From positions 1-47,671 of the forward strand of contig JASMGX010000004.1 in NCBI GenBank assembly GCA_030751095.1: 47,671 nt of DNA, read 5' to 3'. Below, one piece after another: positions 12,027 through 46,037 of this stretch. The notes under the pieces are model-generated. The model made no database searches. It was given only the letters and a program-made list of their open reading frames with translations, and was not told the origin of the DNA. This DNA is from Pirellulales bacterium. Lineage in GTDB: Bacteria; Planctomycetota; Planctomycetia; Pirellulales; UBA7805. A program made the translations under genes and the position numbers. Positions within the stretch are counted from its first letter, which is position 1. The number at the start of each line of letters is the position of its first letter.

Positions 12027-12287
12027 TGCAGGCCTCCTTGCCTACGCGGTAAGGCCATCGAGCCACGACGGCGAAAACCACTTTGTCGGTTCCGACAAAC
12101 TGCCTTGTTTGTCGCATCGTAGACGACGCACACAACCTGCGGACCGAACCCTGACTTTCTTTGCGGGGCAAGGTTTTTGCAGATCCTCATTGGCCACGAC
12201 AGCCTACGATCGGAAAATATTCTTCTATGCGAGGCCAAATGTCAAGTTGATCTGGACAAGCCTCGTGGATTAGAGAAAGATTGAGAT

Positions 12288-25645: not shown

Positions 25646-28093
25646 ATGGCAGTCGATCCCATCTGCGGGATGCATGTCGACGAAAGCACGAACCTGACCG
25701 CCGAGCGCGATGGTGAGAGGTTCTATTTCTGCAGCGAGCACTGCCGCACAAAATTCTTAACGGCAGAGAAATCGCTTCACCATAAAGAGGATCCTAACAA
25801 AACAGCCCACGAATGCTGCCATGGCCACGCTCATCAGGGCTCTCCCGCGGAGCCTGCAGAAAAAGCTTCCCATGGCAAATATTTCTGCCCCATGTGCCCG
25901 GGCGTGCAAAGTGACACACCGGGAACGTGTCCGAAATGCGGCATGGCACTCGAATCCTCAGAGCCCGTGACGCTGGCACAAAAAACGATCTACACCTGCC
26001 CCATGCATCCGGAAATTGAGCGCGACAAGCCGGGTGCCTGCCCCATATGTGGAATGGATCTGGAACCCAAATTCGTTGCGGCAGGTAGCGATGAGGACGA
26101 TACCGAACTGGTGAGTATGACGCGGAGATTCTGGCTTGCGTTCGCACTGAGTTTGCCCGTTCTGCTTCTGGCCATGTTGCCGATGGTTGGAATTGGAGTG
26201 GATCAATGGCTCGGCGAGACTACCTCGCTCTGGTTGCAAGTCATCCTTAGCACCCCCGTGGTATTTTGGGCCGGGGGCATCTTTTTTATGAGGGGCATTC
26301 GGTCCATTGCAACCCTTCAGTTAAACATGTTCACGCTCATCTCCATTGGCACAGGTGCTGCTTATCTCTACAGCCTCCTCGCCGTTCTCTTTCCTGGCAT
26401 TTTCCCTCAGGAACTGAAAACCGGCGGTTCTATTGAAGTCTACTTTGAGGCCGCAGCGGTCATTATTACGCTGGTACTCTTGGGACAGGTGCTGGAACTC
26501 CGCGCACGGAAGAAGACGAGCAGCGCAATCCGAGACCTCTTAGCACTCGCACCTCCCACGGCCCGAGTCATCCGTGATGGCCAAGAACAGGAGATTTCTC
26601 TCGATGCCGTGCAAAAACTCGATACGCTACGGGTTCGGCCCGGTGAAAAAATCCCGGTCGACGGTCGCCTCATCGAAGGAACCAGTTCGGTGGATGAATC
26701 GATGCTCACCGGGGAGTCGCTCCCGGTTGAAAAACAGGCGGGTGATGAGGTGATTGGTGGCTCTTTCAATCACACCGGTGCGTTTTTGATGACTGCTGAG
26801 AAGGTAGGGGCAGATACGCTCCTCGCACAGATCGTACACCGGGTTGCCGACGCCCAGAGGAGCCGCGCGCCTGTCCAAAAAATTGCCGACCGGGTCTCGG
26901 CCTACTTTGTTCCCTTCGTCCTGGCAACCTCCGTAGCCACGCTCTTTGTCTGGATGTTCGTCAAACCGGAACTGGCTGTTGTCAATTCCGTGGCTGTGCT
27001 GATCATCGCCTGTCCCTGTGCCTTGGGTTTGGCGACGCCAATTTCGATCATGGTCGGTATCGGTCGCGGTGCAAAATCGGGCATCCTCGTCAAAGATGCC
27101 GAGGTCCTCGAACTGCTTGAAAAAGTAGACTTTCTGGCGGTCGATAAAACGGGGACCCTCACGGAAGGAAGGCCGAGCCTGACAGGCTGCCTGCCCTCGG
27201 GAGATTGGACGGAGGAGGATCTGCTTGCCTATGCCGCAGCAGCAGAACAGAACAGTGAGCATCCATTGGCTCGGGCAATCATCGCCGCTGCTGAGGACCG
27301 CAGTATTACAGTACCCAAGGCGGACGCCTTCGAATCGATCACCGGTGGTGGGGTTTGGGCGAAGGTGGCCGGAAAAGAGGTGCTCCTGGGCAATCGCTCC
27401 TGGCTTAAGGAAAAACAAATTCGCGGACTCGACGAGGCGGACGAGACAGCCGCGGAAGAGGAGCGTCAGGGCCGGACGGTGATGTTTGTGGCAATCGACG
27501 GGCAACTGAGTGGACTTTTGATCGTCGCCGACACGGTCAAATCCTCAACGCCCGAAGCTATCCAATCTCTGCACCAAGAAGGGCTCCAGTTGACGATGCT
27601 CACCGGGGATAACGAGAGGACGGCCAGCACGATTGCCGCAGAACTCGATCTCGACGCATTCAGCGCCGAACTTCTACCGGATGAAAAGCATGAACAGATC
27701 AAACACCTCCGCACGCAGGGACACACCGTAGCGATGGCTGGCGATGGTATTAACGATGCGCCAGCACTTGCCGAAGCGGATGTCGGAATTGCCATGGGAA
27801 CCGGGACCGATATCGCCATCGAATCGGCAGGGGTGACGCTGGTGAAAGGTGATTTGCTCGGGATTGCCAAGGCGGTCCGGCTCAGCCGGGCGACCATGCG
27901 GAATATCCGGCAAAATTTCTTTTTTGCCTTCGGCTACAACATGCTCGGCGTGCCTCTTGCCGCCGGCGTCCTCTATCCGATCTCGGAACACCTGCTGCTC
28001 AACCCGATGGTGGCCGCCGCGGCAATGAGTCTCAGCAGCGTCTCAGTCGTCTGCAATGCCTTGCGACTGCGAAATATCAAACTCGCAAAATAA
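25646..28093 (+). CDS. copA: Copper-translocating P1B-type ATPase
   Basis: The core motifs are CPC ([13 protein letters not shown]), DKTGTLTEG and [10 protein letters not shown]7/8 carry GYNMLG and MSLSSVSV, as in Cu(I)/Ag(I) pumps. The N-terminus has a TRASH/YHS-like segment ([11 protein letters not shown]...YFCSEHC) plus two CPMxP...CPxCGM modules. Confidence 0.95.
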
Positions 28094-29364: not shown

Positions 29365-30417
29365 TCAGCGGACAAACTCAATCGGAACGGCCAGGTTTGT
29401 CAGCCAGGCTGCGAGGAAAAACATCGCAAAGGATGCCGCTACGAAAAGGGCCATCGTCAGCAACGAGAGTTGGCCCATCTGATGCCCTGCGGCGTCGTCA
29501 CTCTCTGCTACTCCGGCCCCATGCCCTTCGTGGCTGATTTGCCCTTCGTGACTGGGAGGTCCTTCGTGGCTGGGAGGTCCTTCGTGGCTGGGAGGTCCTT
29601 CGTGGCTGGGTTGCCCTTCGTGACTGGGTTGCCCTTCGTGACTGGGTTTTTCTTCATGAATGTGTTGTCCCTCATGCCCATGCTCAGCGGCCGGTCCGGA
29701 CAGATGGCCCGCGTGCTCTCCCGCGGCCTCACCAGAGCGAAGGCCTCTGAACGGATCGTCCGGGCCGATCGTCATGCAGCCATGTTTGAGCCCCTTGCGG
29801 ACGAGAGCATAGTTGACCGGATAGGCGGTCAGACCACCCACGATGGTCGCCATGCTCATCACAAACCAAAATTTTCCCGTCAACGGTCCCCCAACGTCGG
29901 GAAGCAGAAAGTGATTTAAGAGCAGCATCGCGGGGATCATGCCGAGCATGACCATGTTCATGGAGACCGTCTCGGCAAAAATCGTCTTGCGGACCGCAAG
30001 CCGATAATTCCCCTCGTACATGTTTCGCATCATCAACGCCTGAAAGATAAACAGGCCCACGGCATACCCGGCCACATATTCAATTACAAGATCGATGCCA
30101 TTTGCAAATCTGAAAACAGGAACGATCGCGGCGGCTATAAAAATGCCCGTTGCATCGCCGGCCAGACAATGCATCTCGCTGTTGACCCCTTGCTTCCAGG
30201 TCGCCCGGGTGTAGGTGTCATGTTTGCCCGGACCGGGGCTGCGGCAGGTGAGAAAGTAGACCAAAAGTCCAACCGGACCGGTGTAGGCAACCACGAGAAT
30301 CCAGGCCAGTTTCTGTACCCAGCTTACCGGCAGGCGCACCAGGGCATCGTAGAGGACTGTGAGTAGCGAAATCCCGACGAGCACAAACCAGATTGTGACG
30401 ATGAGAGGAAACATCAC
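29365..30417 (-). CDS. DUF4396-like multi-TM protein with a His-rich hexapeptide repeat insert
   Basis: This is a multi-pass membrane protein with MHCLAGDATGIF (a DUF4396-like HC..G motif). Residues ~250-300 read HEEKPSHEGQPSHEGQPSHEGPPSHEGPPSHEGPPSHEGQISHEGHG, and a final TM helix follows. The family call is from memory of the motif only. Confidence 0.7.
   Translation of the reverse strand: MMFPLIVTIWFVLVGISLLTVLYDALVRLPVSWVQKLAWILVVAYTGPVGLLVYFLTCRSPGPGKHDTYTRATWKQGVNSEMHCLAGDATGIFIAAAIVPVFRFANGIDLVIEYVAGYAVGLFIFQALMMRNMYEGNYRLAVRKTIFAETVSMNMVMLGMIPAMLLLNHFLLPDVGGPLTGKFWFVMSMATIVGGLTAYPVNYALVRKGLKHGCMTIGPDDPFRGLRSGEAAGEHAGHLSGPAAEHGHEGQHIHEEKPSHEGQPSHEGQPSHEGPPSHEGPPSHEGPPSHEGQISHEGHGAGVAESDDAAGHQMGQLSLLTMALFVAASFAMFFLAAWLTNLAVPIEFVR
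29524..29649. repeat. In-frame 18-bp tandem repeat x7 (plus one degenerate copy to 29667), encoding (PSHEGx)n on the minus strand
   Basis: The plus-strand units are CCCTTCGTGGCTGATTTG, CCCTTCGTGACTGGGAGG, TCCTTCGTGGCTGGGAGG x2, TCCTTCGTGGCTGGGTTG, CCCTTCGTGACTGGGTTG and CCCTTCGTGACTGGGTTT. Confidence 0.9.
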
Positions 30418-30581
30418 CAGCGCTCCGCTTCATAGAAAGATTGGCCAATGCCGGCGGTTGCCGACAATGCTTTTCTAACATCCTGATCGGATACCATCAA
30501 GCAACCGAGAATACGGTCGACAGGATCTTTCCGGAAGAAAAAGAACAAACAGCCTTTCTTTTTTCCAGTTGCAGATCCGAC

Positions 30582-31721
30582 TCAGATGCGGTCGAGTCGG
30601 TCGCGGTCTTGAGGAGAGTGGGGCTTGGGAGGCTTTGGGGGCTGCGGACCACTCGGCTTTTGCCTGCTCTCTTTAGGATCCTTAATCCAGCGAATTTTGG
30701 ATGCGGCTGCCAGACCGACTTCCTTCACGAACTGCTGCTCGCCCCTTAAGAGCAAAAGGCGGACGGTATTCCCCGCAAAAAGCGGTTTGATCTGGTACTT
30801 GAACTCCACAATATTTGCCACCGGCTGCCGATTGACCGCGACGATGGTATCCCCAACGCGCAACCCGCTCGCTGCGGCTGGGGAATCGGGATGGACAGCC
30901 TGCACTTGGGGCGGAATTCCGAACAGATTGCTATCTTTCTTCAAACTGATCCCCAAAAAACCGGGCCGCAAAATTTCGCCCGTTTTCAGACGCGGCAGCA
31001 CCTGCTGGAGGTAGGTATGCGGAATGGCAAACCCAATCCCCGAGTCGTACCATTCGGCGCCCGCCACATTTCCATCCCGCTCGGGCGAAAGAGGTACCAA
31101 CAGTCCCATCACGCGGCCATGAATATCGACCAGCGGTCCCCCATAATTGTTCGGAGAGATTTTGGCATCGGTCTGAATCGCTTTGTCCCAAATCCGATCG
31201 ACGGCACTGACGATGCCCACCGAAAGATTGACCTGCTCGGCATCGAGCGTGCGGCCTATCGCCAAGGCCCAGGCGCCGGGAACGGCAGAACCGGCCTCTG
31301 CCCACTCGGGCATCATCAACGGCGGGGTCCCCTGAGGAAGATCCACTTTCAAAAGTACCAAGCCGCGACTTTCGTCCGCGCCGAGCAAACGTGCCGGCAG
31401 ATTCAAGCCACCGGGCAATTGGACCAGGATCGAGGTTGGCCGCCGGGCAAAGTTGTAACGGCTTGAGACGATCAGCCCCTCCGGCGAGACAACCAGTCCG
31501 GTACAGGGCCCTTTTCCGAGCGACACACCTCCGACCCGATCGCTCCCACCCACACATTGGATCCGGACCACAGAATCGGCCACCTGCGCGGCCGCAGCCT
31601 GCATCGCCTGCTGCTCGAGATGCGCCAGATCGTTACCCGATGCCCGCGGCAGGGGGGAGGACAAACCGGTTGCAACTGCCAGTGCAAAGAGAGGGGCCGC
31701 AAAAAACTGCTTTTTGTTCAT
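30582..31721 (-). CDS. HtrA-like pseudo-protease with a PDZ-like domain (all three triad residues replaced)
   Basis: The signal peptide is MNKKQFFAAPLFALAVATG. The S1C fold motifs are kept but the triad positions read GLIVSSRYNF (His to Tyr), RGLVLLKV (Asp to Gly) and IQTDAKISPNNYGGPLVD (Ser to Tyr). A PDZ-like segment is GLRVGDTIVAVN. The C-terminal tail is Pro/Lys-rich. Confidence 0.85.
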   Translation of the reverse strand: MNKKQFFAAPLFALAVATGLSSPLPRASGNDLAHLEQQAMQAAAAQVADSVVRIQCVGGSDRVGGVSLGKGPCTGLVVSPEGLIVSSRYNFARRPTSILVQLPGGLNLPARLLGADESRGLVLLKVDLPQGTPPLMMPEWAEAGSAVPGAWALAIGRTLDAEQVNLSVGIVSAVDRIWDKAIQTDAKISPNNYGGPLVDIHGRVMGLLVPLSPERDGNVAGAEWYDSGIGFAIPHTYLQQVLPRLKTGEILRPGFLGISLKKDSNLFGIPPQVQAVHPDSPAAASGLRVGDTIVAVNRQPVANIVEFKYQIKPLFAGNTVRLLLLRGEQQFVKEVGLAAASKIRWIKDPKESRQKPSGPQPPKPPKPHSPQDRDRLDRI

Positions 31722-32776
31722 CGAATCGCTTCTCCGGGCGGCAACGTACGAAGCTCAATAGTCACAAGCTCTTCACCGCGACGGATGAGCAGGGGCAGCA
31801 ACTGTCCACGCTCGAATTTTTCACAGCGACTTTTGACATCCTTGATCGACTGGACCAAGGTGTCTCCGACAAACAAGATCAGGTCATCCTTTCGAAGCCC
31901 TGCCTCCGCTGCGGATGAGATGTCTCGCACCGAATCGATGTACGGGGGCGTGCTGTCGATGACATCCGGAACGAGCACGACTCCCAGTCCGGTAAGATCG
32001 ACCGGATGCCGCACAGGAATGGCGACCTCTTCGCGGGGCCTCTGCGGCTCTCCGGCAATGATCGCAGCCGTCGCGTCGCGAAGTGCCGCGATAGGCAACG
32101 CATAATTGAGCCAGGTATTGTCCTGGCGATTTCTCAATTCTTTGCCCAACATCCCGAGCAAAGTACCGTCAATCGTCGTCAGCGCTCCACCAGCAGCTCC
32201 AGGATTGTTGGTGAGCGCATCGGTCACATACACCCTGCCATTAAACTGGGTCTGAAACACTCCTTTACGAGCTTTCAGATAAGGTACGGCCGAAACCACT
32301 CCTCGCTGCACGCTTGTCGGCTCGTCCCCGGTGGCCACCGAGAAAAGATTACTAAAGGCGAGCACTCGGGTCCCCACATCTGCTTCGAGAGATTGCGATA
32401 GCTGAAAAAAAGGCAGATTCTCTTCATCGATTTTCAAAATGGCAATTTCCAGCCAGGGATCGACCCCTAAGATTTCTGCATCAAATCTTCGTCCGTCATT
32501 GAGCGTTACCGTTGGTGCATCCGTATCAAGAACGTAACTCCAAACGGTGAGAACATGTCCCTCGGAGGAAATGAGAAAACCGCTCTGATACGCCTCCAGG
32601 CCTCGAAAACCGCCCGCCCCGTAAATTTTAACGAGTTTTGGCTGGACGCGATCGATACTGCTTGCAAACGATGGCAATTTCCCCATGGCCATTGCCGACC
32701 GCATCACCGCCTCCGGCGGGCTTAGAACTGCAAAGAGCAGACAGACGAGGGTAAAGAATCGGGACGAGAGGTTCAT
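31718..32776 (-). CDS. HtrA-like pseudo-protease with a PDZ-like domain (triad replaced)
   Basis: The signal peptide is MNLSSRFFTLVCLLFAVLS. The triad positions read GHVLTVWSYV (His to Ser), WLEIAILKI (Asp to Glu) and DALTNNPGAAGGALTT (Ser to Ala). A PDZ-like segment is GLRKDDLILFVGD. ATGA overlaps are present at both ends. Confidence 0.85.
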   Translation of the reverse strand: MNLSSRFFTLVCLLFAVLSPPEAVMRSAMAMGKLPSFASSIDRVQPKLVKIYGAGGFRGLEAYQSGFLISSEGHVLTVWSYVLDTDAPTVTLNDGRRFDAEILGVDPWLEIAILKIDEENLPFFQLSQSLEADVGTRVLAFSNLFSVATGDEPTSVQRGVVSAVPYLKARKGVFQTQFNGRVYVTDALTNNPGAAGGALTTIDGTLLGMLGKELRNRQDNTWLNYALPIAALRDATAAIIAGEPQRPREEVAIPVRHPVDLTGLGVVLVPDVIDSTPPYIDSVRDISSAAEAGLRKDDLILFVGDTLVQSIKDVKSRCEKFERGQLLPLLIRRGEELVTIELRTLPPGEAIR

Positions 32777-34542
32777 TCTTTTTCCGCTTCTTTAAATGCA
32801 AACGATGAAATACGAAAGACGCCGTAGCGCCGCATCGCATAGAGAACCTCAAAGCGATGTGGCAAAGACAAACCATCGACTTCACGATAATCACCGAAGT
32901 ATATTTCACACGGATCGACGCCATCGTCGGGAAACATCTCGAGGGCCAGAAGTTGCCCGCTGTCGGGATCGAACATGAAATGGACTTCGACACCCGCATG
33001 CATCCCTATCAACAGATCAACCTGGTGCGCGTGCCCATGCAGGGGTACCGTTCCGATGTATTCCACTTTCCCAAAATCATCGACGCCTCCTAGAAAGAGT
33101 CGTTGCCAGAGATGCAGCGCCAGCAGCAGCCCCCCGGTTGCGGGCGGGTCAAGAACCTCACTCAACTCGTCGGTAAAATCTGCTCGACCTTGATAAAACG
33201 GTAATTCGGCCGACCCCACCTTCGGACCCAATACGATCCGCATCGGTCCCTCACCGACGTCCGATTGAATATCTCCGGTAAGAACCCAACTGTCCTTTTG
33301 CTCGTGCGGGTCCCAACCGCGACGGACCGCATCGGCAAGCCGTTGGATGTGACGACGATTGAAGTAATAGTTGGCAAAACCCTTCTTCTGCTCATAATGC
33401 TGCTTCACAACAGCAGGCGCCTTTTTTAGCTTGTCAATGGATTTGTTCGGATGTTTTGGAGGGGGCGTTTTCTGATCCTTTTTAGGTCGCCGGCCATCCG
33501 GTCGTCGTGGCGGAGCACCCGGTTTTCCTGAAATTTTTTCTGCCAACTCACCCGCGCCGTGCACACCACCGAGTCGCACGAGCACTTCATACATTTCACC
33601 ATCTCGACGATAGACCAAGGGAACCCGCCAAAGCCGCGGAAGTGTACCGAGCACGTTTTTCAGAGCATTGACACTTCGAATTGGACGGCCTGCCAACTTG
33701 ACGACCTCATCATCGAGACGGAGTCCCCGCCGATAGGCGTCGCTATTTTCAAGAATATCGCTCACAACAACACGGCCTTCCTCGTCACTGGCAACAACCG
33801 CACCGAGTGTTGCGTGATCTACAATCCGCCCACTACGCAAATAGCCGAGAAAGTTTTTGATCTGATTGATCGAAATGGCATATCCAACACCTACATTTAC
33901 CCGTCCTCTCTTTTCAAAAGAGCCGCGGCCATTGATACCGATCAACGTACCACGACCATCAAAAAGAGGGCCTCCGGAATTCCCCGGATTAATCGCCGCA
34001 TCTGTCTGCAGACAATCGGTATACTCCAACAGCGTCCCGGCGGGATATTGGTAACGATGCACTCCGGAAATAATGCCATAAGAGACACTCGGTACAAAGT
34101 CGGTCGCCAGCAAGAATGGATTGCCAATGACATAGACCCAATCGCCTGCGCGGACCTTGTCACTATCACCCAGTGTGGCAGCAGGGAAATCATCGCGACC
34201 AAATAATTTGATCAGTGCGACATCGCCTGTGGGATCCACGCCGACAAGCACCGCATCGTAAAGTTTGCCATCGTTCATGCCGCACTTCATCGCAGCACCC
34301 GATGGCGCCGTCACGTGAAAATTTGTGAGGGCATATCCGTCCGGAGAAATGATGACTCCAGAACCGCCGCCACCACCATCGGGACCGAATACTGCAAGAG
34401 TGGAATCGGATGCCGCAGCGACAACGGCAACCCGCGCTGCCTGCGCACCAAGAACAGCGGCCGGCACCTCTGCGGAAAGCACCTCTGTAGCTGCTACCAA
34501 CAGCCATATCCCAACATTCCACATGAGGATGGGGCGATTCAT
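32773..34542 (-). CDS. HtrA-family serine protease (intact triad) with a PDZ-like domain and a ~240-aa C-terminal extension of unknown type
   Basis: The signal peptide is MNRPILMWNVGIWLLVAATEVLSA. The triad context is GSGVIISPDGYALTNFHV, DVALIKL and TDAAINPGNSGGPLFDGRGTLIGING. A PDZ-like segment is GLRLDDEVVKLAG, followed by a basic Pro-rich linker and then an unrecognised domain. Confidence 0.9.
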   Translation of the reverse strand: MNRPILMWNVGIWLLVAATEVLSAEVPAAVLGAQAARVAVVAAASDSTLAVFGPDGGGGGSGVIISPDGYALTNFHVTAPSGAAMKCGMNDGKLYDAVLVGVDPTGDVALIKLFGRDDFPAATLGDSDKVRAGDWVYVIGNPFLLATDFVPSVSYGIISGVHRYQYPAGTLLEYTDCLQTDAAINPGNSGGPLFDGRGTLIGINGRGSFEKRGRVNVGVGYAISINQIKNFLGYLRSGRIVDHATLGAVVASDEEGRVVVSDILENSDAYRRGLRLDDEVVKLAGRPIRSVNALKNVLGTLPRLWRVPLVYRRDGEMYEVLVRLGGVHGAGELAEKISGKPGAPPRRPDGRRPKKDQKTPPPKHPNKSIDKLKKAPAVVKQHYEQKKGFANYYFNRRHIQRLADAVRRGWDPHEQKDSWVLTGDIQSDVGEGPMRIVLGPKVGSAELPFYQGRADFTDELSEVLDPPATGGLLLALHLWQRLFLGGVDDFGKVEYIGTVPLHGHAHQVDLLIGMHAGVEVHFMFDPDSGQLLALEMFPDDGVDPCEIYFGDYREVDGLSLPHRFEVLYAMRRYGVFRISSFAFKEAEKE

Positions 34543-35774
34543 TTGATGAGCCTGGCGTTACAAAGGTTGAGATGGTCGCCCACATCCTGATTTTCGCCGT
34601 AATCCACGAACAATTCCAGCAGACGAACGCCCGTGAGATCGACCGAGATGTCGCGCGGTCCGTCACGGCCACTCACCTCTGTGGCAAATAACTGTTCGCG
34701 ATCACCATAGATAACAAGCCGCACATGTCCCGATTGACGGTTCGCCGCATCAATTCCAGCGCGAGCGCGAAAATACCGAACACCCACCGGCAAATCGTAG
34801 GCGATCCGCGTTCGACTGTGCAGCGAAATTCCTCGATCGTACGACTCGATGCTCGCAGCGGCACCACTACCGCTGGCAATTCGCAACTGGCCGTTATCGT
34901 ATCGGGCCCGCCGAAGCGATAGAGCGCGATCTTTTTTAGGTCGGTAAAATCGCTCCAACAGATTTCCGAGCCCCTGCAATTCAATATAGGGTGTCCATGC
35001 GACAGAGACCGGCTCCAGTTGAGACAAATAGACGATTTTTTCGGATGAGAAATCAAGTTTCTTGATCTGGTTGTAGCGATACTGCACCGAAATCCCGCAT
35101 GGAGTCTGCACCCGTATCTCTTCTGGTCCCGCGGAAAACTCGGCCACCTCGAGAAGCGATCCATCGACCGCCATCAACTGCATGATCGCCGGTCGTTGTT
35201 CAGGCCCTCTGCGGTGGCCATAGAGGATGCCTGCAAGCTTGCCGATTCCGACAGGGATGACCTCTCCATCGAGCTCAAATTCGACTGTCTGTTGATTGAC
35301 CTTCTCAATGATGCCATCGAGGTAGTCGAGCTTATCCTGTCTGCGGATTGCAATCCGGTCTGTCCGGTCACCCTCCAGACGGATTCGGTCCCAGGCAGCG
35401 GTCTGTGCAGCATTGTGTTTTCCGAATCGAACGGCACGGACCGTGCGAAGCGGCACATCCAACGCACGACCGTTGGTGAACCGGATGCGGGCATCGTCAC
35501 CAGATGTTTCGTAAAAAGTCGTTGCCAGCCGGGAACCATCGACCAGTCGCAGCCAAGCGGTCGCAGGGTTCGTTGGAATCTTTTCGTCGGCAGAAAACTC
35601 GATGTTCTGCAGTTCCGACAACGGCATCTCGCGCAGGCCCTCTTCTGTCTCTAAGGCAACGATTCCATCGCGAATCGAAACGAGGCTGCCATGGGCCACG
35701 GCACCGTCCATCGATTGCACACTGAGCGTTGGGGCTACAGCGGCAAAAATCAACATGGACAAAGATGCAATCAT
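34539..35774 (-). CDS. Secreted protein with a C-terminal NPCBM/NEW2-like domain
   Basis: The signal peptide is MIASLSMLIFAAVAPTLSVQS. The C-terminus ...GISLHSRTRIAYDLPVGVRYFRARAGIDAANRQSGHVRLVIYGDREQLFATEVSGRDGPRDISVDLTGVRLLELFVDYGENQDVGDHLNLCNARL resembles the NPCBM carbohydrate-binding-module layout. Confidence 0.75.
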   Translation of the reverse strand: MIASLSMLIFAAVAPTLSVQSMDGAVAHGSLVSIRDGIVALETEEGLREMPLSELQNIEFSADEKIPTNPATAWLRLVDGSRLATTFYETSGDDARIRFTNGRALDVPLRTVRAVRFGKHNAAQTAAWDRIRLEGDRTDRIAIRRQDKLDYLDGIIEKVNQQTVEFELDGEVIPVGIGKLAGILYGHRRGPEQRPAIMQLMAVDGSLLEVAEFSAGPEEIRVQTPCGISVQYRYNQIKKLDFSSEKIVYLSQLEPVSVAWTPYIELQGLGNLLERFYRPKKDRALSLRRARYDNGQLRIASGSGAAASIESYDRGISLHSRTRIAYDLPVGVRYFRARAGIDAANRQSGHVRLVIYGDREQLFATEVSGRDGPRDISVDLTGVRLLELFVDYGENQDVGDHLNLCNARLIK

Positions 35775-35795
35775 GAAAACACTTGTAGCAAAATA

Positions 35796-36836
35796 CTACT
35801 TCCTTTCTTTTGCCAACTCACGAAAATATTCCTCAATCACCTCCCGATAATGAGCGGGAAAATCGCGACTGATCTGCTGCATCGCCTCCTCGCGCTCTTT
35901 GGGAGGCAAGTCGCCCCAGTTGGCCGATTTGCCAAGATCGCGTTTTTGGACCTCTCCGCGGCCTTTCCCCCCCGCAGGAAGACTCTCCTGCATCGGCGCG
36001 GGAGATTGTCCGCCACCAAAAGCGACTTCGCTGCTCTGCGACTGTTTTTTCTCTTCCTCTTTGATCAATGTATCGAGCATCCGAATCACTTCATCTTCTT
36101 TCTCCTGCACACGCTCACCCGCTTGACCGTGACTGAGTCGCTGCTTTATATCTTTCATTCGTCGCGATATATCATCCAGAGAACCATCCTTTAATTGCAT
36201 CAGATCGCGTCGCATCAATCTCGCGAGAACTCGATAACGCTCTGGAAGATCACTTTCATGTTCCAGTAGGCGGTTGAGCTGAAAGAGTCCCTTCTTCGTC
36301 TCGATGGAGTGGTGATGAAGAACTCCCTGGTAAAACAAGAGTGCTGTCGGATCCAAGACATCGTCCGGCCCAAGGTCTTCGAGTTGCTGCTGCGCCTCGT
36401 CAAAGTATTGTGCCTGAGCAAGACTTCGCCCGAGAAGGAGACGAAGATTATTTCGGACAAGTGGTGCGATCTGCTCTCCATCGAGCCAGGTGCCAAGCGC
36501 CACCGTTTCCGGCGTTGCGCCTCGTCGACAGCTGACGATGAGCGACTCCGCTCGCCGATCGGCGAGTAGAATGATCGCCGCGACAGAATCAAGATCGCCT
36601 CGTTTGTCTCCGGGATCCACGTCGATCGACCAGAGACGGTCGACCTTACGACGTACTTCTACCGACACCTTCCGCTGTTGCAGCCATCGGTTCAGGCTCT
36701 GTTTGATCGCGGCGTCCGAAGGGATCCGCCATGTTGGCGTTTTTTCAGACGCCCCAAGGGTGATCCGGCTCTGGCATGCAATGAGCATAAACCATGAAAC
36801 AATCACCAACACATTAAAGACCGTTTTTGTTTTCAT
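35796..36836 (-). CDS. Hypothetical lipoprotein (helical, TPR-like middle, charged C-terminus)
   Basis: The ATG at 36836 gives MKTKTVFNVLVIVSWFMLIAC (lipobox-like). An upstream TTG at 36866 would overlap the preceding stop (TTGA). The C-terminus reads WGDLPPKEREEAMQQISRDFPAHYREVIEEYFRELAKERK. I recognise no family. Confidence 0.7.
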   Translation of the reverse strand: MKTKTVFNVLVIVSWFMLIACQSRITLGASEKTPTWRIPSDAAIKQSLNRWLQQRKVSVEVRRKVDRLWSIDVDPGDKRGDLDSVAAIILLADRRAESLIVSCRRGATPETVALGTWLDGEQIAPLVRNNLRLLLGRSLAQAQYFDEAQQQLEDLGPDDVLDPTALLFYQGVLHHHSIETKKGLFQLNRLLEHESDLPERYRVLARLMRRDLMQLKDGSLDDISRRMKDIKQRLSHGQAGERVQEKEDEVIRMLDTLIKEEEKKQSQSSEVAFGGGQSPAPMQESLPAGGKGRGEVQKRDLGKSANWGDLPPKEREEAMQQISRDFPAHYREVIEEYFRELAKERK

Positions 36837-36862
36837 GTCATTATCCGAAGCAGCACCAGCGT

Positions 36863-38536
36863 TCAACGATTTTTTCCCTGCACAATATCCCGTGAGATTA
36901 TTTCGATCCGTTCCTGCCGCTCGGCCAATCGATATAATTGAGACAGCAATTTCTCAAAGGACTCGCCATCACGTTCGAGCATCTCTTGATAGATTGCCGT
37001 CCGTCGATTTACGCGGATCTGCAACGCCCGGATCATCTTCAATTCTGCCAAATTATCCACCAGGGGTGGATCGGTCGGCTGTCCACCAGCACCAGACGGT
37101 GATGCGCGACGGGCCTGCTGCTCGCGCTGCGCCTTTTTTAATGCCGCAATAACATCCTCCAGCGCGTCGAGAATATCCTCTTCGATCTGCTGCGTCAATT
37201 TTCCGGTCTTGCCCCCATCGAGTCGGACCATGACTATTTCCATGTCTTCGCGAATTTGCAAAGCTGCCTCCGGAAGCGCCACTGCCGTGGCATCTTCGCG
37301 AAACAGCACCATGACTGTATCGACCAGAGCAATGATTTTCGCTTCATTCCCACTGAGCCGACTCGCTTCAATCTCATAGGCCCGATTTCGATCGGATGGC
37401 GGCGTCTGGTCGAGTACAACTGTCGCATCATACACTTTCTTCTGCATCTTCAGCATCTTTCGAAATCGTCCCTCGAGCATGGCCAGCATGCGTTCGACCT
37501 CTTCTTCGCGAAGCTGCCGCAAAATCCGCTCGAGTTCCGCCTTGGCCTTTTCCAGTGCGGCGATCGCCGCCTCCTGATCGTCGATTGCATCACGACGCTT
37601 TGCTTTTTCAAGATTGCTCTCCGCGGCCCGCATTCGCCTGCGGGCCTCTTCGAGTTGCTCACGAGGGAGAAACGCGCCTCGGTCTTGCGATTCTTTACCC
37701 GATTCTTTACCCGATTCTTTACCCGACTCCCCGCCCGACTCCTTGCCCGACTCCTTGCCCGACTCCTTGCCCGACTCCTTGCCCGACTCTTTGCCCGACT
37801 CTTTGCCCGACTCTTTGCCCGACTCTTTGCCCGACTCCTTGCCCGACTCTTTGCCCGACTCCTTGCCCGACTCTTTACCCGACTCTTTGCCCGATTGCTT
37901 CGAGCGACCGGGCGACTCCTCATGTTTTTTCATCTTCTGCACAATCGACTCGGTGCGTTCGGCCAGCTTGCCCTGCTCGGGGGCCAACTCTGCTTCCGGT
38001 CCCACACGCTCGGCCTGTCCCTGCAGGCCTTTCTGCATTTTGATCACTCGATTGATCTCTTTGATGTACTGACGAACCCGTTGTTTTTGAGAATTATTCG
38101 TCCTTTCACGATTCTCTGTAAGCAACAACGTGAGCAGTGCCGAAAGTTGTTCCTCGACCAACTGCTGTTTGTCAATTGCCTCATCGACTTCTCGGATGAG
38201 CAACGAGTCCCGATCCAACATCTCAATGAGTTGCCGGAACTCACTGGCAGTATCCTCGCGATTGATTAGCTCGACTGCTTTTTCCATAACCGCGGCGCGG
38301 GCAGGATCCGTCTCTCTAAGAAAATTAGCCAGGTCTGTCAGATTTTTCTTAAATCGACTGAAGGTGTCCGCCACCTTAGCCTGCTCGATGAGCAACCGAT
38401 CCGCATGGACTTGGCGTTCCGAGGCAGCAGAGGGGGGCGTATCCTCTGCCATCCCGAATGCAGTCAGACAAACCAACAGCATGCTGGCAACAGTACAACG
38501 ACACATTGCTGCAATCACCACCAATCTCTCTCCCAA
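36863..38536 (-). CDS. Secreted coiled-coil protein with a (GKES)17 low-complexity linker
   Basis: The signal-like N-terminus is MCRCTVASMLLVCLTAFGMA (ATG 38506) or starts from the TTG at 38536. Long heptad-like charged helices lie on both sides of SGKESGKES...GGES...GKES. Confidence 0.8.
   Translation of the reverse strand: MGERLVVIAAMCRCTVASMLLVCLTAFGMAEDTPPSAASERQVHADRLLIEQAKVADTFSRFKKNLTDLANFLRETDPARAAVMEKAVELINREDTASEFRQLIEMLDRDSLLIREVDEAIDKQQLVEEQLSALLTLLLTENRERTNNSQKQRVRQYIKEINRVIKMQKGLQGQAERVGPEAELAPEQGKLAERTESIVQKMKKHEESPGRSKQSGKESGKESGKESGKESGKESGKESGKESGKESGKESGKESGKESGKESGKESGGESGKESGKESGKESQDRGAFLPREQLEEARRRMRAAESNLEKAKRRDAIDDQEAAIAALEKAKAELERILRQLREEEVERMLAMLEGRFRKMLKMQKKVYDATVVLDQTPPSDRNRAYEIEASRLSGNEAKIIALVDTVMVLFREDATAVALPEAALQIREDMEIVMVRLDGGKTGKLTQQIEEDILDALEDVIAALKKAQREQQARRASPSGAGGQPTDPPLVDNLAELKMIRALQIRVNRRTAIYQEMLERDGESFEKLLSQLYRLAERQERIEIISRDIVQGKNR
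37689..37892. repeat. In-frame 12-bp tandem repeat x17, encoding (GKES)n on the minus strand
   Basis: The plus-strand units occur in blocks: GATTCTTTACCC x3, GACTCCCCGCCC x1, GACTCCTTGCCC x4, GACTCTTTGCCC x4, then GACTCCTTGCCC, GACTCTTTGCCC, GACTCCTTGCCC, GACTCTTTACCC and GACTCTTTGCCC. Confidence 0.95.
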
Positions 38537-38591
38537 TGGCGCAGGAATCTGTTTTTAAGCCTCAGTCACTCGCAATCAATTATAGCCCTCT

Positions 38592-40919
38592 TTAGGGTCC
38601 ATCGAGCAGACCTTTTTTCAGTTGCTCTTTTAGCTGCTTTTCCAGCAATTGCCGTTGCTCCTGTGTCTGCTTCGACACCTGCTTATGGCCATGGATGATT
38701 TTGCGCAAATCCGCAAGCAATTCATTAAATTTCTGCAAGTCCAGCATATTCTTCAGCACATTTTCCAGCGCACGGATGATCTTCGAGAGCTGTTGCTGGC
38801 TTGATTCGATTTCGGCAAAGAGCGATTGTTGGTCCTCGAGAGCATGACGAAGCCGTTTTAAGTCGCGATCGAACTGTGAAAATTGTTGCTCCACAATTTG
38901 ATTCAGGGGAACCACAATACCACCGCCAATCCGTCGCTCCAACTCTTCGAAAAAGGCTACTTTGTTGTTTTTCAACTCTGCTAAGATTCGTTCAAATTCC
39001 TCCGCAACACTCGCGGTCTCGTGCTGCATTCGGTCGCTTGTCTGAATCGCCGTTTCGATCCGCAACAGACGGACCGAATCGGCACGCGTCAGGGCAGGGG
39101 AGTCGCCCCGGCTATTTTCGCTCTCACTCTCTGGCGCGTTTTCCTCCGTCTCGTTTTTTAGATCGGACGAGGAACGGGAAGTCTCTTCTGAATCCGAAAG
39201 CATCCTCCGGAAAGAATCCTCGGTGCGATGCAATTCCGTGAGGATTGCTTCGAATCGCCTCCGCAAAACACGCTCCCGTGTTTCCAGCAGAGCCCGCAAC
39301 TCACTTTCACTAACAACGCGCAAGCGAAAACGATCGCTCTTTCCTATTTGAAATTCGGGATCCAAGGAACAATTGTCCGCAGCAGCTATTTGGAGAGACA
39401 GTATTTGACCCGCATGCAGTTGCCCATCCGCCAATTCGAAAGCAAGATTCCGTGCTTCGTCCAATTGACCATTTTCCGGTAGCGAGAATTCCTGCTCCTG
39501 CGGTCCTGCCCCATCGATGGAAAACTCGATCCAGCTTTTTGAAATCCCATAATCGTCCTGTACCACGCCACGGATCGGCAAAGCGGCCGTCGGTGTAATG
39601 GCCTTGCCAATTCCTACCAGATCGACATCCACCTCTGGCTTTTCATCCGGCAAGATTCGCACCAATACTTGAATCGTCTTCTGATTGGTAACGCCATCTG
39701 TATCGACCAACTGAAAAGAGACTCGGGTGTCATCTCGCAACGATCCTAAGTCCAATTCGATCGCATGGGGATCATGCTCGTGGATCTCAATCGACTCCCA
39801 CGGCACTTCCGTCTCTTGAGTTGTTTTGCGAAAGGAAGCTTTTAAGAGTGGTTTACTGGATCGCGCAAGGATCCGGACACCCGTTCCCTCCGGAGCAGGC
39901 TTTGAAAGCCGGATCTGGGAGGTCGTCGCCTCTCGGCCCAGATATTGGGGATACTCATAATGCATACTGATCTCTGTAAGATCGGGACTTTCCACAGCCT
40001 CAATCAGCAGGCCATCCACTCGGTCACTCTTTGAAAAGAGCCCGCTACCTTTTGCGGTCACACTGAAGGGCACCGACGCTTGAATATCCGTAAATTGGTA
40101 CTCATAGAATTGGTGCGCATCGCGTCCCGGGATCGCCTGATTGAGCCTCGTCATGTTAGGTCGGTTAAAGCCCCCGCCATCGGCTTGGTAGGAAATCTCT
40201 ACGGATTGAGGAACCGACCAATTCAGATCCGCCATCGCCCGCACCGTGAGGCTGTCGCCTTTGGCCACTTTTACAGATCGGCGCCCGAGCGGATCGGGAG
40301 GAAACCCCTCGACATCAATTTTTGTCGCATGGGGCCACGCACTATCGCCTAACAACAAACTACGGTCAGCCCAGATACGGGCCGCGCCGGGTTGCCAGAG
40401 CACAAACACCGCAACGCTACCAAGGGCGGCAACAGCAATCGCGAAAGTCTGCAAGAGCGGTCGGAAGCTGAAGACCATTCGAACATTGGCGTCCGGTAGC
40501 AACTGAGCGACCTCCTCGCGCGTACTGGCCAGCATCCGTGGATCGTAATCGATATTTTCTTTGTCTCTTTCACTTAACTCGACTACCGTGACGAGACGTT
40601 CTCCCAATTGGTGATAGTGACGCTCCAACAGCAGAGCCAAACTCCGTTCTGAAAGCGGAATCAACAAGCGACTGGCTGCCACTCGATACACCACAACAGA
40701 CGCAATTGCGCAAAAGATCACCAGCAACAGTGTGCGAACAAACTGCGATGGCTCTACTGCCCAGTCGACGAAGAGGCTCATCCAAAAGAGGATTGCGAGC
40801 ACCGAGAGGAAGGCAGCGACTCCCTGTAAGAAAATATAGCCGCGTATCATCCAACGCAAACGATGCAGGTGATCGACCCACACTCTGGAAGGACGTGCTC
40901 TTTCGGATACCGTTGCCAT
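38592..40919 (-). CDS. DUF4175-like membrane protein (three N-terminal TM segments, beta-rich middle, coiled-coil C-terminus)
   Basis: The N-terminus is HLHRLRWMIRGYIFLQGVAAFLSVLAILFWMSLFVDWAV, with two further hydrophobic segments. The C-terminal ~200 aa are charged and heptad-like (…LKRLRHALEDQQSLFAEIESSQQQLSKIIRALENVLKNMLDLQKF…). The family name is tentative. Confidence 0.75.
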   Translation of the reverse strand: MATVSERARPSRVWVDHLHRLRWMIRGYIFLQGVAAFLSVLAILFWMSLFVDWAVEPSQFVRTLLLVIFCAIASVVVYRVAASRLLIPLSERSLALLLERHYHQLGERLVTVVELSERDKENIDYDPRMLASTREEVAQLLPDANVRMVFSFRPLLQTFAIAVAALGSVAVFVLWQPGAARIWADRSLLLGDSAWPHATKIDVEGFPPDPLGRRSVKVAKGDSLTVRAMADLNWSVPQSVEISYQADGGGFNRPNMTRLNQAIPGRDAHQFYEYQFTDIQASVPFSVTAKGSGLFSKSDRVDGLLIEAVESPDLTEISMHYEYPQYLGREATTSQIRLSKPAPEGTGVRILARSSKPLLKASFRKTTQETEVPWESIEIHEHDPHAIELDLGSLRDDTRVSFQLVDTDGVTNQKTIQVLVRILPDEKPEVDVDLVGIGKAITPTAALPIRGVVQDDYGISKSWIEFSIDGAGPQEQEFSLPENGQLDEARNLAFELADGQLHAGQILSLQIAAADNCSLDPEFQIGKSDRFRLRVVSESELRALLETRERVLRRRFEAILTELHRTEDSFRRMLSDSEETSRSSSDLKNETEENAPESESENSRGDSPALTRADSVRLLRIETAIQTSDRMQHETASVAEEFERILAELKNNKVAFFEELERRIGGGIVVPLNQIVEQQFSQFDRDLKRLRHALEDQQSLFAEIESSQQQLSKIIRALENVLKNMLDLQKFNELLADLRKIIHGHKQVSKQTQEQRQLLEKQLKEQLKKGLLDGP

Positions 40920-40955
40920 ACAATAGGCTCGCCGGAAAAAATCAATACGATAAAG

Positions 40956-43706
40956 TCAGGCCAACTTAAACATCCGTCTAAGCAGCCACTCAAAACACAA
41001 AACGCCACAGAGCAGGAACATCATCCACCGACTCCAGGCCGCTTCCCAAACGGGGTCAACATCTCCAGCCACAGGTGTCATGCGCGTCTGATCTTCCAAC
41101 AGAGCGACCAGTGGTGGATCGCCGGAGAGTCCGAGGACATCTTCAATCGAGGTTAAATAACGCCCGCCAGTACTCTCTGCCAATTGCTTTAATGCTTTTT
41201 TATTCTGCTGAGGATTCCTCTTCTCCCGGTCGGAAGTTGTCACCTTCACCACTTTGGACAGCGGACTATCGTCACTTTCCGGGGGCTGCAGTTGCAGGCG
41301 ATAATCTTGAACTTTTCCAGCCGTCCATTCGCCCCGGAAGGTCCCTTTTCGATGAGGATCTGCCTTGAGCACATACGGCACACCCTCTCCGTCGCGACCA
41401 AACACATACATCGTGACACTTTCGGCCTCATATGGGTTTCGCTGGGCATCTTTCAGCTGCGCTACGACCGGAATGATATCACCAACTTGATAATTTTCTT
41501 TTTCCAGCAGCAACACATCACCGCGGCCCGATCCGCGGTAGAGCCGACCGGTCGAAACATGCCGAATCAGCCGTGTGTAGAACTGTTCAAAATACGCTTC
41601 ATCCAATCGGCGAAGCCGCCACATCTCTCCACTCGCCTGATAAAAAACGCGACCTCGCCCATAAAACTGTCCGGCAAAGAAAATCGGGGACTGGCCGAGC
41701 GAATCGGCAAGTTCGTCCTGGTAGTGGGCGTAGACCGTCGCACCAAACTTCTTTCCCTTGACCGGTTGTCCGCCATAGATACCGCCAAACGCAGTCCATA
41801 TTTGCTGGCTGGCAACGGAATTATCATCCAATTGCAGAAAAGTCGCGTCAATCCCGTCTCGGGTAAAGGCCAAACTCCGCTGTTTGGAAGCGTGTTGTCC
41901 CCATTCTTCGGGAAATTCGAAGTCGTCATAAAAATGGACGGGATAGAGATCTCGCAGGTGTTGGTACTCGGGATCGTAGATCCAACTATTGACGACACTA
42001 CCGGCATGGACCGCACCGGGAACCAGAATCAGGCCTCCTGCCTCATCCCCCACCCACGTCTCAATCATCGCCACCCCGCCTGGCCCCAGTTGACTCCAGT
42101 CAGGATCGATCCCAACAAGGACATCGTATTCAAACAGCTCCTCACCCTCTGGAAATTTTTCCAGATACGATGCATTCTCACTACCCGCATGTTTTCTGCT
42201 CTGTAGCAGCACATCCAAATCAATGTGTTTTTTATCTCTCTCGAGCAGATTACGAAGAAACTGGAATTCACGACTTGGTCCACCCGCAAACAGGAGGACT
42301 CGTGTGCGTCGGGCAACCACATCGATATACAATCGTTGTTTGGTTTCATCACTACCTGCCCGGGCACCTTTGACTGCCACGCTCAGTTCAAAAGCATACC
42401 GCCCCGCTAGGTCAATACCGTCAACTTCGAAGAGTACCGGTACGACATCGTCATCATCCGCACCAAGCAGTACATCTGCCTCTTGTGGCACAACCACATC
42501 CTCCCCTTCGGCGTGCGTCTGCTCGTCACGGGAGAGTTGCTGGAGCGTAACGGTCGCTGTGCGACCTGCATATCCCTGGGATTTCAAATACGCCGTTATC
42601 ATAAACGGATCATTTTGGTAGGCGCGTGCAGGTGCGGAATAATCCGCCAGACGGACATATTCTGGTGCACTTGATTTTCCGAGCCCAACGGCAAAAACCG
42701 GCACCTGTGCCTCTTGCGCTTTTTCGATTGCCTCGGTGAGAGCAAGCCCTGCGGTCTGCTGTCCATCGCTCATAAGCAGAATGCCCGCAACGGGTGCGGT
42801 GCGGTTTTTGGCGAGAGCCGCATGGAGTGCCTGCCCCACCTTGGTATCCTCTCCCTGTGCGGTGAGTAGGGTCTGCCAGTCGACGAGGTCTGCTGCAAGC
42901 TTCTCTTGATCGCGATCTGGTTCTCTTTTCTCAGCAGAGCCAGGCTCATCGAGTGCCAGCAGCGTGCGGATACCGAACTTGGGACCAAACGCAAATGTCC
43001 CCGCCAGCAGCGCAAGTGCGATCAGTGCAAAGAGCCCCGCTGAAACGAACAGACCACGAGAAACAACGCCCGCTCTTGCTGGCCTGAGGAGAAACCATCC
43101 CGCCAGAACAATTGCCAGAAGGAGCATGCACCCGGCAAGCCCCAAGCGCCACCGAGCCGTCTGCACCGCTGCAGCGATGGCAGCAGTTTCCTCAGGGGCA
43201 TCCTTGGTAGCCGGCTCCCATTTGGGCAAGGATGCGAGCGGAGTCGGTTCCTCGTCCTTATCAAACCGATACACAACGACATCGTGTACCTTGCGCAAGT
43301 CAGAAAGTAACTTGCCATCGGTCAATTCACGAACCACTCGTTGCAGACGTCCCTCAGGGCCGATTCCAGTCGGCATCGTAATATCCTGCTCACCCATACT
43401 CTGGCTCGTATCGACGAGCAGGAGCACTCTGGAATTGTCCACCACATCCCGCGTAGCCCGCCATTGCGGCTGGAGGTAGACCGCCAGCAAACCAACAAGA
43501 GCCAGCATACGAAGCGCAATGAGTACAACCGCCCGACGAGAACCCAATTCAATACAATCAAGCAGATACATGCCAACAACGAACCAGGCAAGCAAAAGCA
43601 GAATTCCAGCGGGAAGCATCCAGTCCCAGGGCGAGGAGAGGTCGCGGCCGAATTCAAAACTTGTCCGCACTGTCGCTGCAGCCAGCATGGCACATTGTTC
43701 GCTCAT
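40956..43706 (-). CDS. Multi-TM von Willebrand factor A (vWA) domain protein
   Basis: The MIDAS motif is VLLLVDTSQSMGEQD (DxSxS). Several TM segments are visible (ILLLLAWFVVGMYLL, ALRMLALVGLLAVYL, LAGCMLLLAIVLAGWFLL, C-terminal MMFLLCGVLCFEWLL). A second vWA-like stretch reads GILLMSDGQQTAG...VPVFAVGLG. Confidence 0.85.
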   Translation of the reverse strand: MSEQCAMLAAATVRTSFEFGRDLSSPWDWMLPAGILLLLAWFVVGMYLLDCIELGSRRAVVLIALRMLALVGLLAVYLQPQWRATRDVVDNSRVLLLVDTSQSMGEQDITMPTGIGPEGRLQRVVRELTDGKLLSDLRKVHDVVVYRFDKDEEPTPLASLPKWEPATKDAPEETAAIAAAVQTARWRLGLAGCMLLLAIVLAGWFLLRPARAGVVSRGLFVSAGLFALIALALLAGTFAFGPKFGIRTLLALDEPGSAEKREPDRDQEKLAADLVDWQTLLTAQGEDTKVGQALHAALAKNRTAPVAGILLMSDGQQTAGLALTEAIEKAQEAQVPVFAVGLGKSSAPEYVRLADYSAPARAYQNDPFMITAYLKSQGYAGRTATVTLQQLSRDEQTHAEGEDVVVPQEADVLLGADDDDVVPVLFEVDGIDLAGRYAFELSVAVKGARAGSDETKQRLYIDVVARRTRVLLFAGGPSREFQFLRNLLERDKKHIDLDVLLQSRKHAGSENASYLEKFPEGEELFEYDVLVGIDPDWSQLGPGGVAMIETWVGDEAGGLILVPGAVHAGSVVNSWIYDPEYQHLRDLYPVHFYDDFEFPEEWGQHASKQRSLAFTRDGIDATFLQLDDNSVASQQIWTAFGGIYGGQPVKGKKFGATVYAHYQDELADSLGQSPIFFAGQFYGRGRVFYQASGEMWRLRRLDEAYFEQFYTRLIRHVSTGRLYRGSGRGDVLLLEKENYQVGDIIPVVAQLKDAQRNPYEAESVTMYVFGRDGEGVPYVLKADPHRKGTFRGEWTAGKVQDYRLQLQPPESDDSPLSKVVKVTTSDREKRNPQQNKKALKQLAESTGGRYLTSIEDVLGLSGDPPLVALLEDQTRMTPVAGDVDPVWEAAWSRWMMFLLCGVLCFEWLLRRMFKLA

Positions 43707-45976: not shown

Positions 45977-46037
45977 TCGTATTTCACGAAGTGAAAACCA
46001 ACGGGAAACAAAAATTCACACCGTCTGCTGTAGCCCA

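Follow-up and report, generated by a model that had tools for sequence, protein, structure and literature searches.

The 47,671-nt contig JASMGX010000004.1 of a Pirellulales bacterium (GenBank assembly GCA_030751095.1), which we call the window, carries on its minus strand four adjacent genes for a putative sugar-binding protein (N411) and three paralogues of the HtrA serine protease family, one with an intact catalytic triad (H589) and two in which all three triad positions are substituted (D352 and D379). Judged by these residues, D352 and D379 are HtrA-fold pseudoproteases, that is, non-proteases. On balance, and with little more than even confidence, we favour the view that the three paralogues form a hetero-oligomeric HtrA assembly that is regulated by its dead subunits and in which only H589 cuts. 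The four genes lie at the 3′ end of an 11-gene MoxR/VWA envelope operon, which is conserved and of Bat-like type (Table 1).

An earlier note on this DNA, made from the letters alone, had described the four minus-strand open reading frames (ORFs) and three ATGA overlaps between them. Coordinates and junctions were checked and are correct: N411/H589, H589/D352 and D352/D379 each meet in an ATGA, a 4-nt overlap of stop and start. The signal-peptide-like starts mentioned there were found as well, since all four products have a hydrophobic N-terminal segment compatible with a signal peptide. Export of H589, D352 and D379 is likely, and the four proteins are presumably extracytoplasmic, located in the periplasm. 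A scan for promoters and terminators over positions 30300-47671 gave counts that match the shuffled expectation, and it does not inform on transcription units.

All three paralogues match the Pfam family Trypsin_2 (114 bits for H589, 73 for D352 and 66 for D379, with a cut-off of 27.6) and have DegP, DegQ and DegS as their best PDB matches in phmmer searches. Their closest NCBIfam families are Do/DegP/DegS, with the equivalog cut-offs far from reached; for TIGR02037, the E-values are 2e-61 (H589), 1e-30 (D352) and 2e-35 (D379), all under the trusted full-length cut-off. When aligned to the DegP triad, H589 shows His76, Asp107 and Ser189, and these residues are kept in 71-72 of 72 H589-type sequences, the window protein counted in. 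The equivalent positions are Ser80, Glu110 and Ala195 in D352 (aligned to DegQ and DegP), and Tyr89, Gly120 and Tyr193 in D379 (aligned to DegS and DegP); phmmer alignment to the solved DegP, DegQ and DegS structures gives the same residues as had been read by the earlier note.

D352 consists of the protease fold and one PDZ, while D379 has the protease fold, one PDZ and a Pro/Lys-rich tail. The PDZ, said before to be kept in both dead paralogues, is found by Pfam alongside Trypsin_2 in all three HtrA-type proteins, the PDZ_2 scores (cut-off 27) being 29.9 bits for D352, 42.8 for D379 and 26.0 for H589, which also matches PDZ (PF00595). The carboxylate-binding loop of this domain (hydrophobic-Gly-hydrophobic) is kept across the three families, as TLGA, GLGV and FLGI. 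Mutual identity of H589, D352 and D379 is 25-28%.

When one genome per GTDB species was scanned, we obtained 385 loci, of which 80 were kept for synteny and orthologue work. A separate search with D352 returned more than 4000 relatives; the top 120 of these share 52-99% identity and belong to Planctomycetaceae, Pirellulales and Thermoguttaceae. In the alignment of the query with these top 120 (121 sequences), the His position is occupied by Ser in all 121, the Asp position by Glu in 111 and the Ser position by Ala in 109. The D352-type proteins of the species loci (n = 77, window protein included) agree, with Ser in 77, Glu in 69 and Ala in 72. Amongst the D379-type proteins from the species loci (n = 71, window protein included), the His position is Phe or Tyr in 69 and the Ser position Tyr in all 71; the Asp position is mostly Met or Gly. 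Because the same substitutions recur in the orthologues of 70-120 other genomes, the substitution pattern is not due to chance. Triad alignments and family-wide residues are thereby in agreement with the earlier proposal of one live and two dead HtrA paralogues, and the specific substitutions have proved conserved.

These families show 50-67% identity across orders of Planctomycetia. Mean pairwise distances are 0.63 for H589, 0.64 for D352 and 0.67 for D379, compared to 0.95-1.33 for the other operon proteins; because the values of the three paralogues are near-equal, the two dead ones are under purifying selection as strong as that on H589. The segment of the former catalytic serine ranks at the 97th percentile of conservation amongst the 9-residue windows of the domain in D352 (the L1 loop, NNPGAAGG) and at the 96th percentile in D379. 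We take these data to mean that D352 and D379 are two old pseudoprotease families with a role still at the former active site. That they could be decaying, functionless duplicates, an accident of this genome, is suggested by the triad loss itself and by nothing more; the identity across orders, the invariant family residues, a divergence equal to that of the live protease and the 100% synteny described below refute this reading, the probability of which is practically nil. D352-type proteins are publicly annotated as “S1C family serine protease” or “serine protease Do”. For this dead family such labels are misleading, and the same labelling is expected for the D379 type.

Evidence that ties a dead paralogue to the live one comes from gene fusions. 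Single-chain fusions of H589-type and D352-type proteins were identified in at least five divergent clusters: P0155 (922 aa), P0198 (982 aa), P0262 (980 aa), P0269 (970 aa) and P0277 (N-terminally truncated). In each, a complete H589-type protein (protease, PDZ and the LolA-like domain discussed below) is followed by a D352-type protease-PDZ part with Ser in place of the catalytic His and Ala, Lys or Pro in place of the catalytic Ser. Pairwise identity is 40-47% amongst the four full-length fusions and 33-45% for pairs with the truncated P0277. Four of the fusions were checked for their neighbourhood and share the gene context; P0155, P0262 and P0269 occur, as expected, before a D379-type gene. 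P0269 was obtained in assemblies of two independent sequencing runs, and in three fusions the inter-domain linker is without a signal-peptide remnant. As “Rosetta-stone” proteins, the fusions support a close, stoichiometric cooperation of H589 and D352. Together with the retained PDZ loops, the C-terminal tail of D379 and the slow evolution of the dead copies, they give indirect support to a heteromer. The case for membership of D379 is weaker: it builds on invariant adjacency, strong conservation and the PDZ-ligand-like character of the tail.

The D379 protein in the window is a short form, most orthologues being ~655 aa in length. The long orthologues consist of the dead protease, two PDZ and an alpha/beta-hydrolase-like domain, the latter assigned by weak Pfam matches only; they are carried by L010 (e.g., ~11067-13030), L078 (the cultured Anatilimnocola sp. 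NA78) and ~59 other loci. In this third domain, the nucleophile position of the G-x-S-x-G motif is Glu in 30 and Gln in 18 of 61 sequences, and the usual long third subunit may combine two pseudoenzyme domains. The C-terminal end reads W[IFL]D[TSA]LD[RK][ILF] in ~65 of 71 sequences. Its last residues persist in the short forms (the window protein ends in ...DRDRLDRI), so that the tail is kept despite the loss of ~270 residues between the first PDZ and the tail.

The residues now found at the old active site may be read differently, as signs that the dead paralogues have taken on a new function apart from H589 proteolysis, such as ligand or metal binding or a part in envelope structure, and share the operon only through their common service to one MoxR/VWA envelope system. 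The invariant, non-catalytic Ser80 of D352 and Tyr193 of D379 could form a new binding site, the apparently dead alpha/beta-hydrolase-like domain of the long D379 forms suggests a pseudoenzyme scaffold, and MamO provides the precedent of a pseudoprotease turned metal-binding (PMC4794232). However, we identified no new motif, metal-binding or other, a di-His site of the MamO type not having been looked for, and both the fusions with the live protease and the retained PDZ loops suggest a protease-linked role. We rate a separate function as quite improbable.

The gene order around the paralogues is highly conserved. A tblastn search of the window proteins against the 80 loci (79 labelled planctomycete, one labelled “uncultured bacterium”) yielded the same order and strand, VWA916-X775-X557-X356-N411-H589-D352-D379, wherever the contig reaches. 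All 80 loci are colinear, and the expected gene is present in every informative flank (72/72 for D379, 71/71 for H589, 69/69 for N411, 59/59 for X356, 50/50 for X557 and 48/48 for X775), as the earlier reading of the four genes required of related genomes. In the metagenome scan with X775, an alignment of 15 sequences was too divergent to serve as seed; an alignment of six worked, and five loci were confirmed. The earlier view of the four genes as a unit needs to be amended in part: their coupling is real, while the unit is not free-standing here, being the tail of the 11-gene MoxR/DUF58/BatA/VWA operon. In one lineage, the four-gene module can stand apart from the Bat genes: L087 (MAG GCA_964632505.1, 6727-14016) has a Band_7 (stomatin-like) gene followed by genes for an NPCBM protein, a fused H589-D352 and a short D379-like protein, and Bat, X557 and X356 genes are absent from the 10 kb upstream of the module.

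A number of observations weigh against a mixed particle. Over 35 loci, the mirror-tree residual correlation of H589-D352 is a modest 0.32 (r), which ranks third among 21 pairs; with values of 0.01 for H589-D379 and 0.11 for D352-D379, the correlations give no support for a three-way complex. In the orthologues, 4-nt overlaps were counted at 52 of 69 N411/H589, 20 of 70 H589/D352 and 27 of 67 D352/D379 junctions (start-codon choice being approximate); many orthologue pairs are 50-200 nt apart, and coupling is not universal. In Thermoguttaceae loci, a gene for a 719-aa M49-like peptidase splits H589 and D352. The signal peptides of the four proteins were judged by eye, and the tail of the long D379 orthologues might be no more than the final helix of their alpha/beta-hydrolase-like domain. 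As to the known relatives, physical contact between MamE and MamO was not detected (PMC4794232), and the Deg5/Deg8 complex is made of homotrimers (PMC4877387).

The absent or weak co-evolution with D379, the Thermoguttaceae insert and the homotrimers of Deg5/Deg8 would also fit a situation in which each paralogue forms homo-oligomers, as would the HtrA folds and PDZ peptide-binding loops kept in the dead copies. The latter would be PDZ-bearing holdase chaperones or adaptors (cf. DegP S210A) that capture, protect or deliver clients of the Bat-like machine, with H589 alone degrading or processing these clients, and contacts between the paralogues would be transient or, as in Deg5/Deg8, between homotrimers. 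Against this, the repeated or ancient H589-D352 fusions speak for a close stoichiometric association of at least these two proteins, and the 1:1:1 gene order is strict in 80 of 80 loci; we consider the homo-oligomer alternative serious, if somewhat unlikely.

The gene inserted in Thermoguttaceae was seen in L013 (7491-9650), where its 719-aa product has a HExxGH...EExRAD motif and is M49/dipeptidyl-peptidase-III-like by motif alone. A gap of similar size occurs in L030.

The C-terminal domain of H589 (~240 aa), which the earlier note could not assign, is in its AlphaFold2 (AF2) model a LolA/LolB/RseB-like fold. In this model the protease part has low confidence, the alignment rows being distant paralogues, and we used only the PDZ and the C-terminal domain; for the latter (aa ~395-585), the predicted local distance difference test score (pLDDT) is >90. 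The best PDB matches in Foldseek are LolA-superfamily proteins, namely NE2245 (3buu; E 1e-5, template modelling (TM) score 0.51), Porphyromonas gingivalis LolA3 (9tp6), 3bk5, 4mxt, LolB (8cm1) and RseB (2p4b), all at the level of the fold only, with a sequence identity of 10-13%. Pfam gives a weak match to DUF4292 (E 0.063). A Pro/Lys-rich linker separates the PDZ from the LolA-like domain. An exhaustive search with aa 370-589 of H589 resulted in 429 cluster representatives, and the full-length ones are almost all HtrA proteins of ~560-610 aa with the LolA-like domain at the C-terminus; a word-indexed search with the C-terminal region returned 16 proteins, mostly fragments. By analogy with the LolA family, this domain may bind lipid.

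The NPCBM-like module that had been noticed in the leading protein, N411, is borne out by both a Pfam NPCBM match (80 bits versus a cut-off of 23.9; E 2e-22) and a CBM51 fold match. In the AF2 model (mean pLDDT 88.7), the module follows four beta repeats, and Foldseek aligns it with the CBM51 structure 2vmh (TM 0.86, root-mean-square deviation 2.6 Å) and with the CBM51 domains of ZmpB (E 4e-13); with phmmer, the PDB CBM51 chains 7js4 and 2vmh were matched. The modelled C-terminus of N411 is accordingly described here as a putative sugar-binding CBM51 module. A public copy of N411 (100% identical, 405 aa) begins at Met7 and not at the ATG at 35774 (window 35756-35774), so that the start and the signal peptide of N411 are uncertain by six codons.

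In the hetero-oligomer that we favour, H589, D352 and D379 would assemble into one HtrA particle in which cutting is done by H589 alone. D352 and D379 would be non-catalytic subunits that bind substrate or ligand via their PDZ and former active-site surfaces, and would set the activity state of H589 allosterically, on the model of DegS and HtrA2, for which allostery from subunit to subunit is known. The tail of D379 (...LD[RK][ILF]) may serve as a tethered PDZ ligand. For the LolA-like domain of H589, we propose lipid or the acyl moiety of a lipoprotein as ligand, one candidate being X356, encoded two genes upstream of H589; N411, through its CBM51 module, would attach the assembly to glycan or present a glycoprotein substrate. 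We infer the physical association into hetero-oligomers, the gating, the function of the tail and the ligands. The stoichiometry could be that of a 1:1:1 mixed trimer or of stacked homotrimers.

A bolder version, which we think unlikely, is an obligate 1:1:1 trimer with a single active site that is switched when the D379 tail docks in a neighbouring PDZ. The LolA-like domain would sense lipoprotein or lipid, the CBM51 protein would anchor the particle to glycan, and the particle would serve a MoxR/VWA trans-envelope machine as its exported proteolytic output. A MoxR/VWA machine with this module may be widespread in Planctomycetia and is possibly universal there.

The upstream part of the operon contains the Bat-like core, namely MoxR (AAA_3), DUF58, a BatA N-terminal domain and VWA membrane proteins, as identified with Pfam and NCBIfam. 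DUF58 proteins are the usual partner of MoxR. The MoxR ORF apparently lacks its true N-terminus: the AAA_3 match sets in at position 58 of the profile, and the ORF is close to the window end (47671). MoxR matches of 77-87% identity head the same 11-gene array in L081, L084 and L085, and the metagenome contigs L081 and L084 have the complete 11-gene order from MoxR to D379. Equivalents of BatC, BatD and BatE were not identified in the operon; there is only a weak match to TPR, the sole outcome of the profile search with X356.

The stop codon of BatA757 overlaps the start of VWA916 by 4 nt, and the same holds for the stop of X557 and the start of X356. No known family was found for X775 in profile searches. 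The match of X557 to Pfam DUF4175 (2e-5) is under the cut-off; a 12-nt unit repeated 17.2 times (37688-37894) encodes (GKES)n inside X557, the middle region of which does not align among orthologues and constitutes a variable low-complexity spacer. X356 probably starts downstream of the listed TTG: from the internal Met11 onwards it reads MKTKTVFNVLVIVSWFMLIAC, which is typical of a lipoprotein signal and includes a lipobox cysteine (36774-36836).

We also considered whether the operon is an anti-phage defence system, for which there was no support: in a PADLOC scan of ten operon proteins (all but D379), nine had no match, and the match of H589 is confined to the generic protease portion of RT-Protease models.

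Table 1. Features of the operon and of its HtrA and CBM51 proteins in the window (nt, positions of the forward strand; aa, amino acids).
Feature	Position (nt)	Strand	Size or residues	Description	Basis
MoxR	46909-47634	minus		MoxR-type AAA+ ATPase	Pfam AAA_3 4e-37, AAA_lid_2
DUF58 protein	46038-46940	minus		VWA-like	Pfam DUF58 7e-51
BatA757	43703-45976	minus		BatA double-transmembrane N-terminus and VWA-like region	Pfam BatA 4e-16, TIGR02226 9e-19
VWA916	40956-43706	minus		membrane protein with transmembrane segments	Pfam VWA 2.5e-7
X775	38592-40919	minus		multi-pass membrane protein, large extracytoplasmic part	
X557	36863-38536	minus		exported or anchored coiled-coil protein, DUF4175-like	
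X356	35796-36866	minus		predicted lipoprotein, lipobox LIAC (Cys 36774-36776); 21 nt upstream of N411	
N411	34539-35774	minus	411 aa	putative sugar-binding protein	ORF list
N411 beta repeats		minus	aa 16-60, 73-117, 139-184, 198-241	four similar, small, five-stranded repeats	AF2 model
N411 CBM51/NPCBM module	34548-34922	minus	aa 285-409	putative sugar-binding module	Pfam, Foldseek
H589	32773-34542	minus	589 aa	HtrA paralogue with intact triad	ORF list
H589 protease domain	33847-34371	minus	aa 58-232		Pfam, NCBIfam
H589 triad codons	34315-34317; 34222-34224; 33976-33978	minus	His76; Asp107; Ser189		coordinates verified
H589 PDZ	33568-33813	minus	aa 244-325		Pfam, NCBIfam
H589 LolA-like domain	32788-33360	minus	aa ~395-585	predicted LolA-like fold	AF2, Foldseek
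D352	31718-32776	minus	352 aa	dead HtrA paralogue	ORF list
D352 triad codons	32537-32539; 32447-32449; 32192-32194	minus	Ser80; Glu110; Ala195		coordinates verified
D379	30582-31721	minus	379 aa	dead HtrA paralogue, short form	ORF list
D379 triad codons	31455-31457; 31362-31364; 31143-31145	minus	Tyr89; Gly120; Tyr193		coordinates verified
D379 C-terminal LDRI	30585-30596	minus		end of the conserved tail	family alignment

Downstream of the operon lies a gene for a DUF4396 membrane protein (29365-30417, minus strand), in which seven 18-nt units at 29522-29648 encode the His-rich repeat HEG(Q/P)PS. Next to it, an 815-aa ORF on the plus strand (25646-28093) resembles, by eye, a copper-type P-type ATPase with CxxC/CGMxV metal-binding motifs. 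These two genes may represent a metal-homeostasis islet unrelated to the HtrA cluster.

HtrA proteases with pseudoprotease partners are a known kind of system, and the present one is apparently undescribed: the literature searched contained no description of it, as the earlier note had supposed for an HtrA system of this composition, although absence there does not prove absence overall. It is set apart by having two different dead families, a live protease fused to a LolA-like domain, a partner with CBM51, a C-terminal tail that is conserved, and an unchanging place in a MoxR/VWA operon.

The closest pseudoprotease precedent is the pair MamE/MamO of the magnetosome system, where a live HtrA is likewise co-encoded with a selected paralogue of degenerate triad. 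MamO is needed non-catalytically for MamE activity, and duplication with catalytic loss arose several times (PMC4794232). Unlike in that pair, there are two dead families here, the paralogues are apparently all exported and have PDZ, the live subunit carries a LolA-like domain, and the context is a MoxR/VWA Bat-like operon instead of a magnetosome island. The Pfam results for our HtrA paralogues contain no TauE domain, a feature of MamO, and the NCBIfam MamO/MamE scores are 26-122 bits (26-35 for MamO alone) against a cut-off of 800. By these profiles, the likeness to MamO is one of functional resemblance, not of family membership.

Several HtrA paralogues also occur together in Deg5/Deg8, both of which keep the catalytic triad. 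They form a natural hetero-oligomer of fixed stoichiometry in the Arabidopsis thylakoid lumen, the only one known amongst HtrA proteases, which are otherwise treated as trimer-based homo-oligomers (PMC4877387). Deg5 and Deg8 are plant nuclear genes, presumably not operon-coupled, with no pseudoprotease reported to take part.

In the sigma-E stress sensor of Escherichia coli, DegS is an HtrA that is controlled via its PDZ by C-terminal peptides and works with the LolA-fold protein RseB. The logic of PDZ ligand and LolA fold is similar here, RseB (2p4b) being amongst the fold matches of the H589 C-terminus, but the LolA-like fold is fused to the protease and the candidate PDZ ligand is on a dead paralogue. 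Moreover, the substrate is known in the DegS/RseB system, whereas this cluster has no RseA-like substrate or sigma factor. NCBIfam DegS scores of the paralogues are 82-123 bits versus cut-offs of >400.

The upstream half of the operon, with MoxR AAA+, DUF58, a BatA domain and membrane VWA proteins, is shared with the Bat-type operons of Bacteroides, Borrelia, Leptospira and Rhizobium, the function of which is undefined, with links to envelope integrity; HtrA, LolA-like and CBM51 domains are not among the domains listed for them (PMC5700661). The planctomycete version adds X775, X557 and X356 as well as N411, H589, D352 and D379. Finally, CBM51 is tied to a peptidase in Clostridium perfringens ZmpB, too, whose CBM51 is in structure the closest match of the N411 C-terminus. 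ZmpB is an M60 glycoprotease, a metallopeptidase with its CBM51 in the same chain; in the present case, the module is on a protein of its own, with translational coupling to a serine protease.

If the bolder version with an obligate, tail-switched trimer is true, it would be the first natural case of an HtrA with non-equivalent subunits. In HtrA proteases, allosteric signals pass between identical subunits; one live subunit with two different dead ones would show how pseudoenzymes can regulate an HtrA, and mechanistic studies would have a naturally asymmetric particle at their disposal. The planctomycete cell envelope is poorly understood. Through the fixed place at the operon end, Bat-type systems are connected with a protease, a lipid-carrier fold and a sugar-binding module, and the bolder version, if true, would provide the first functional handle on these systems.

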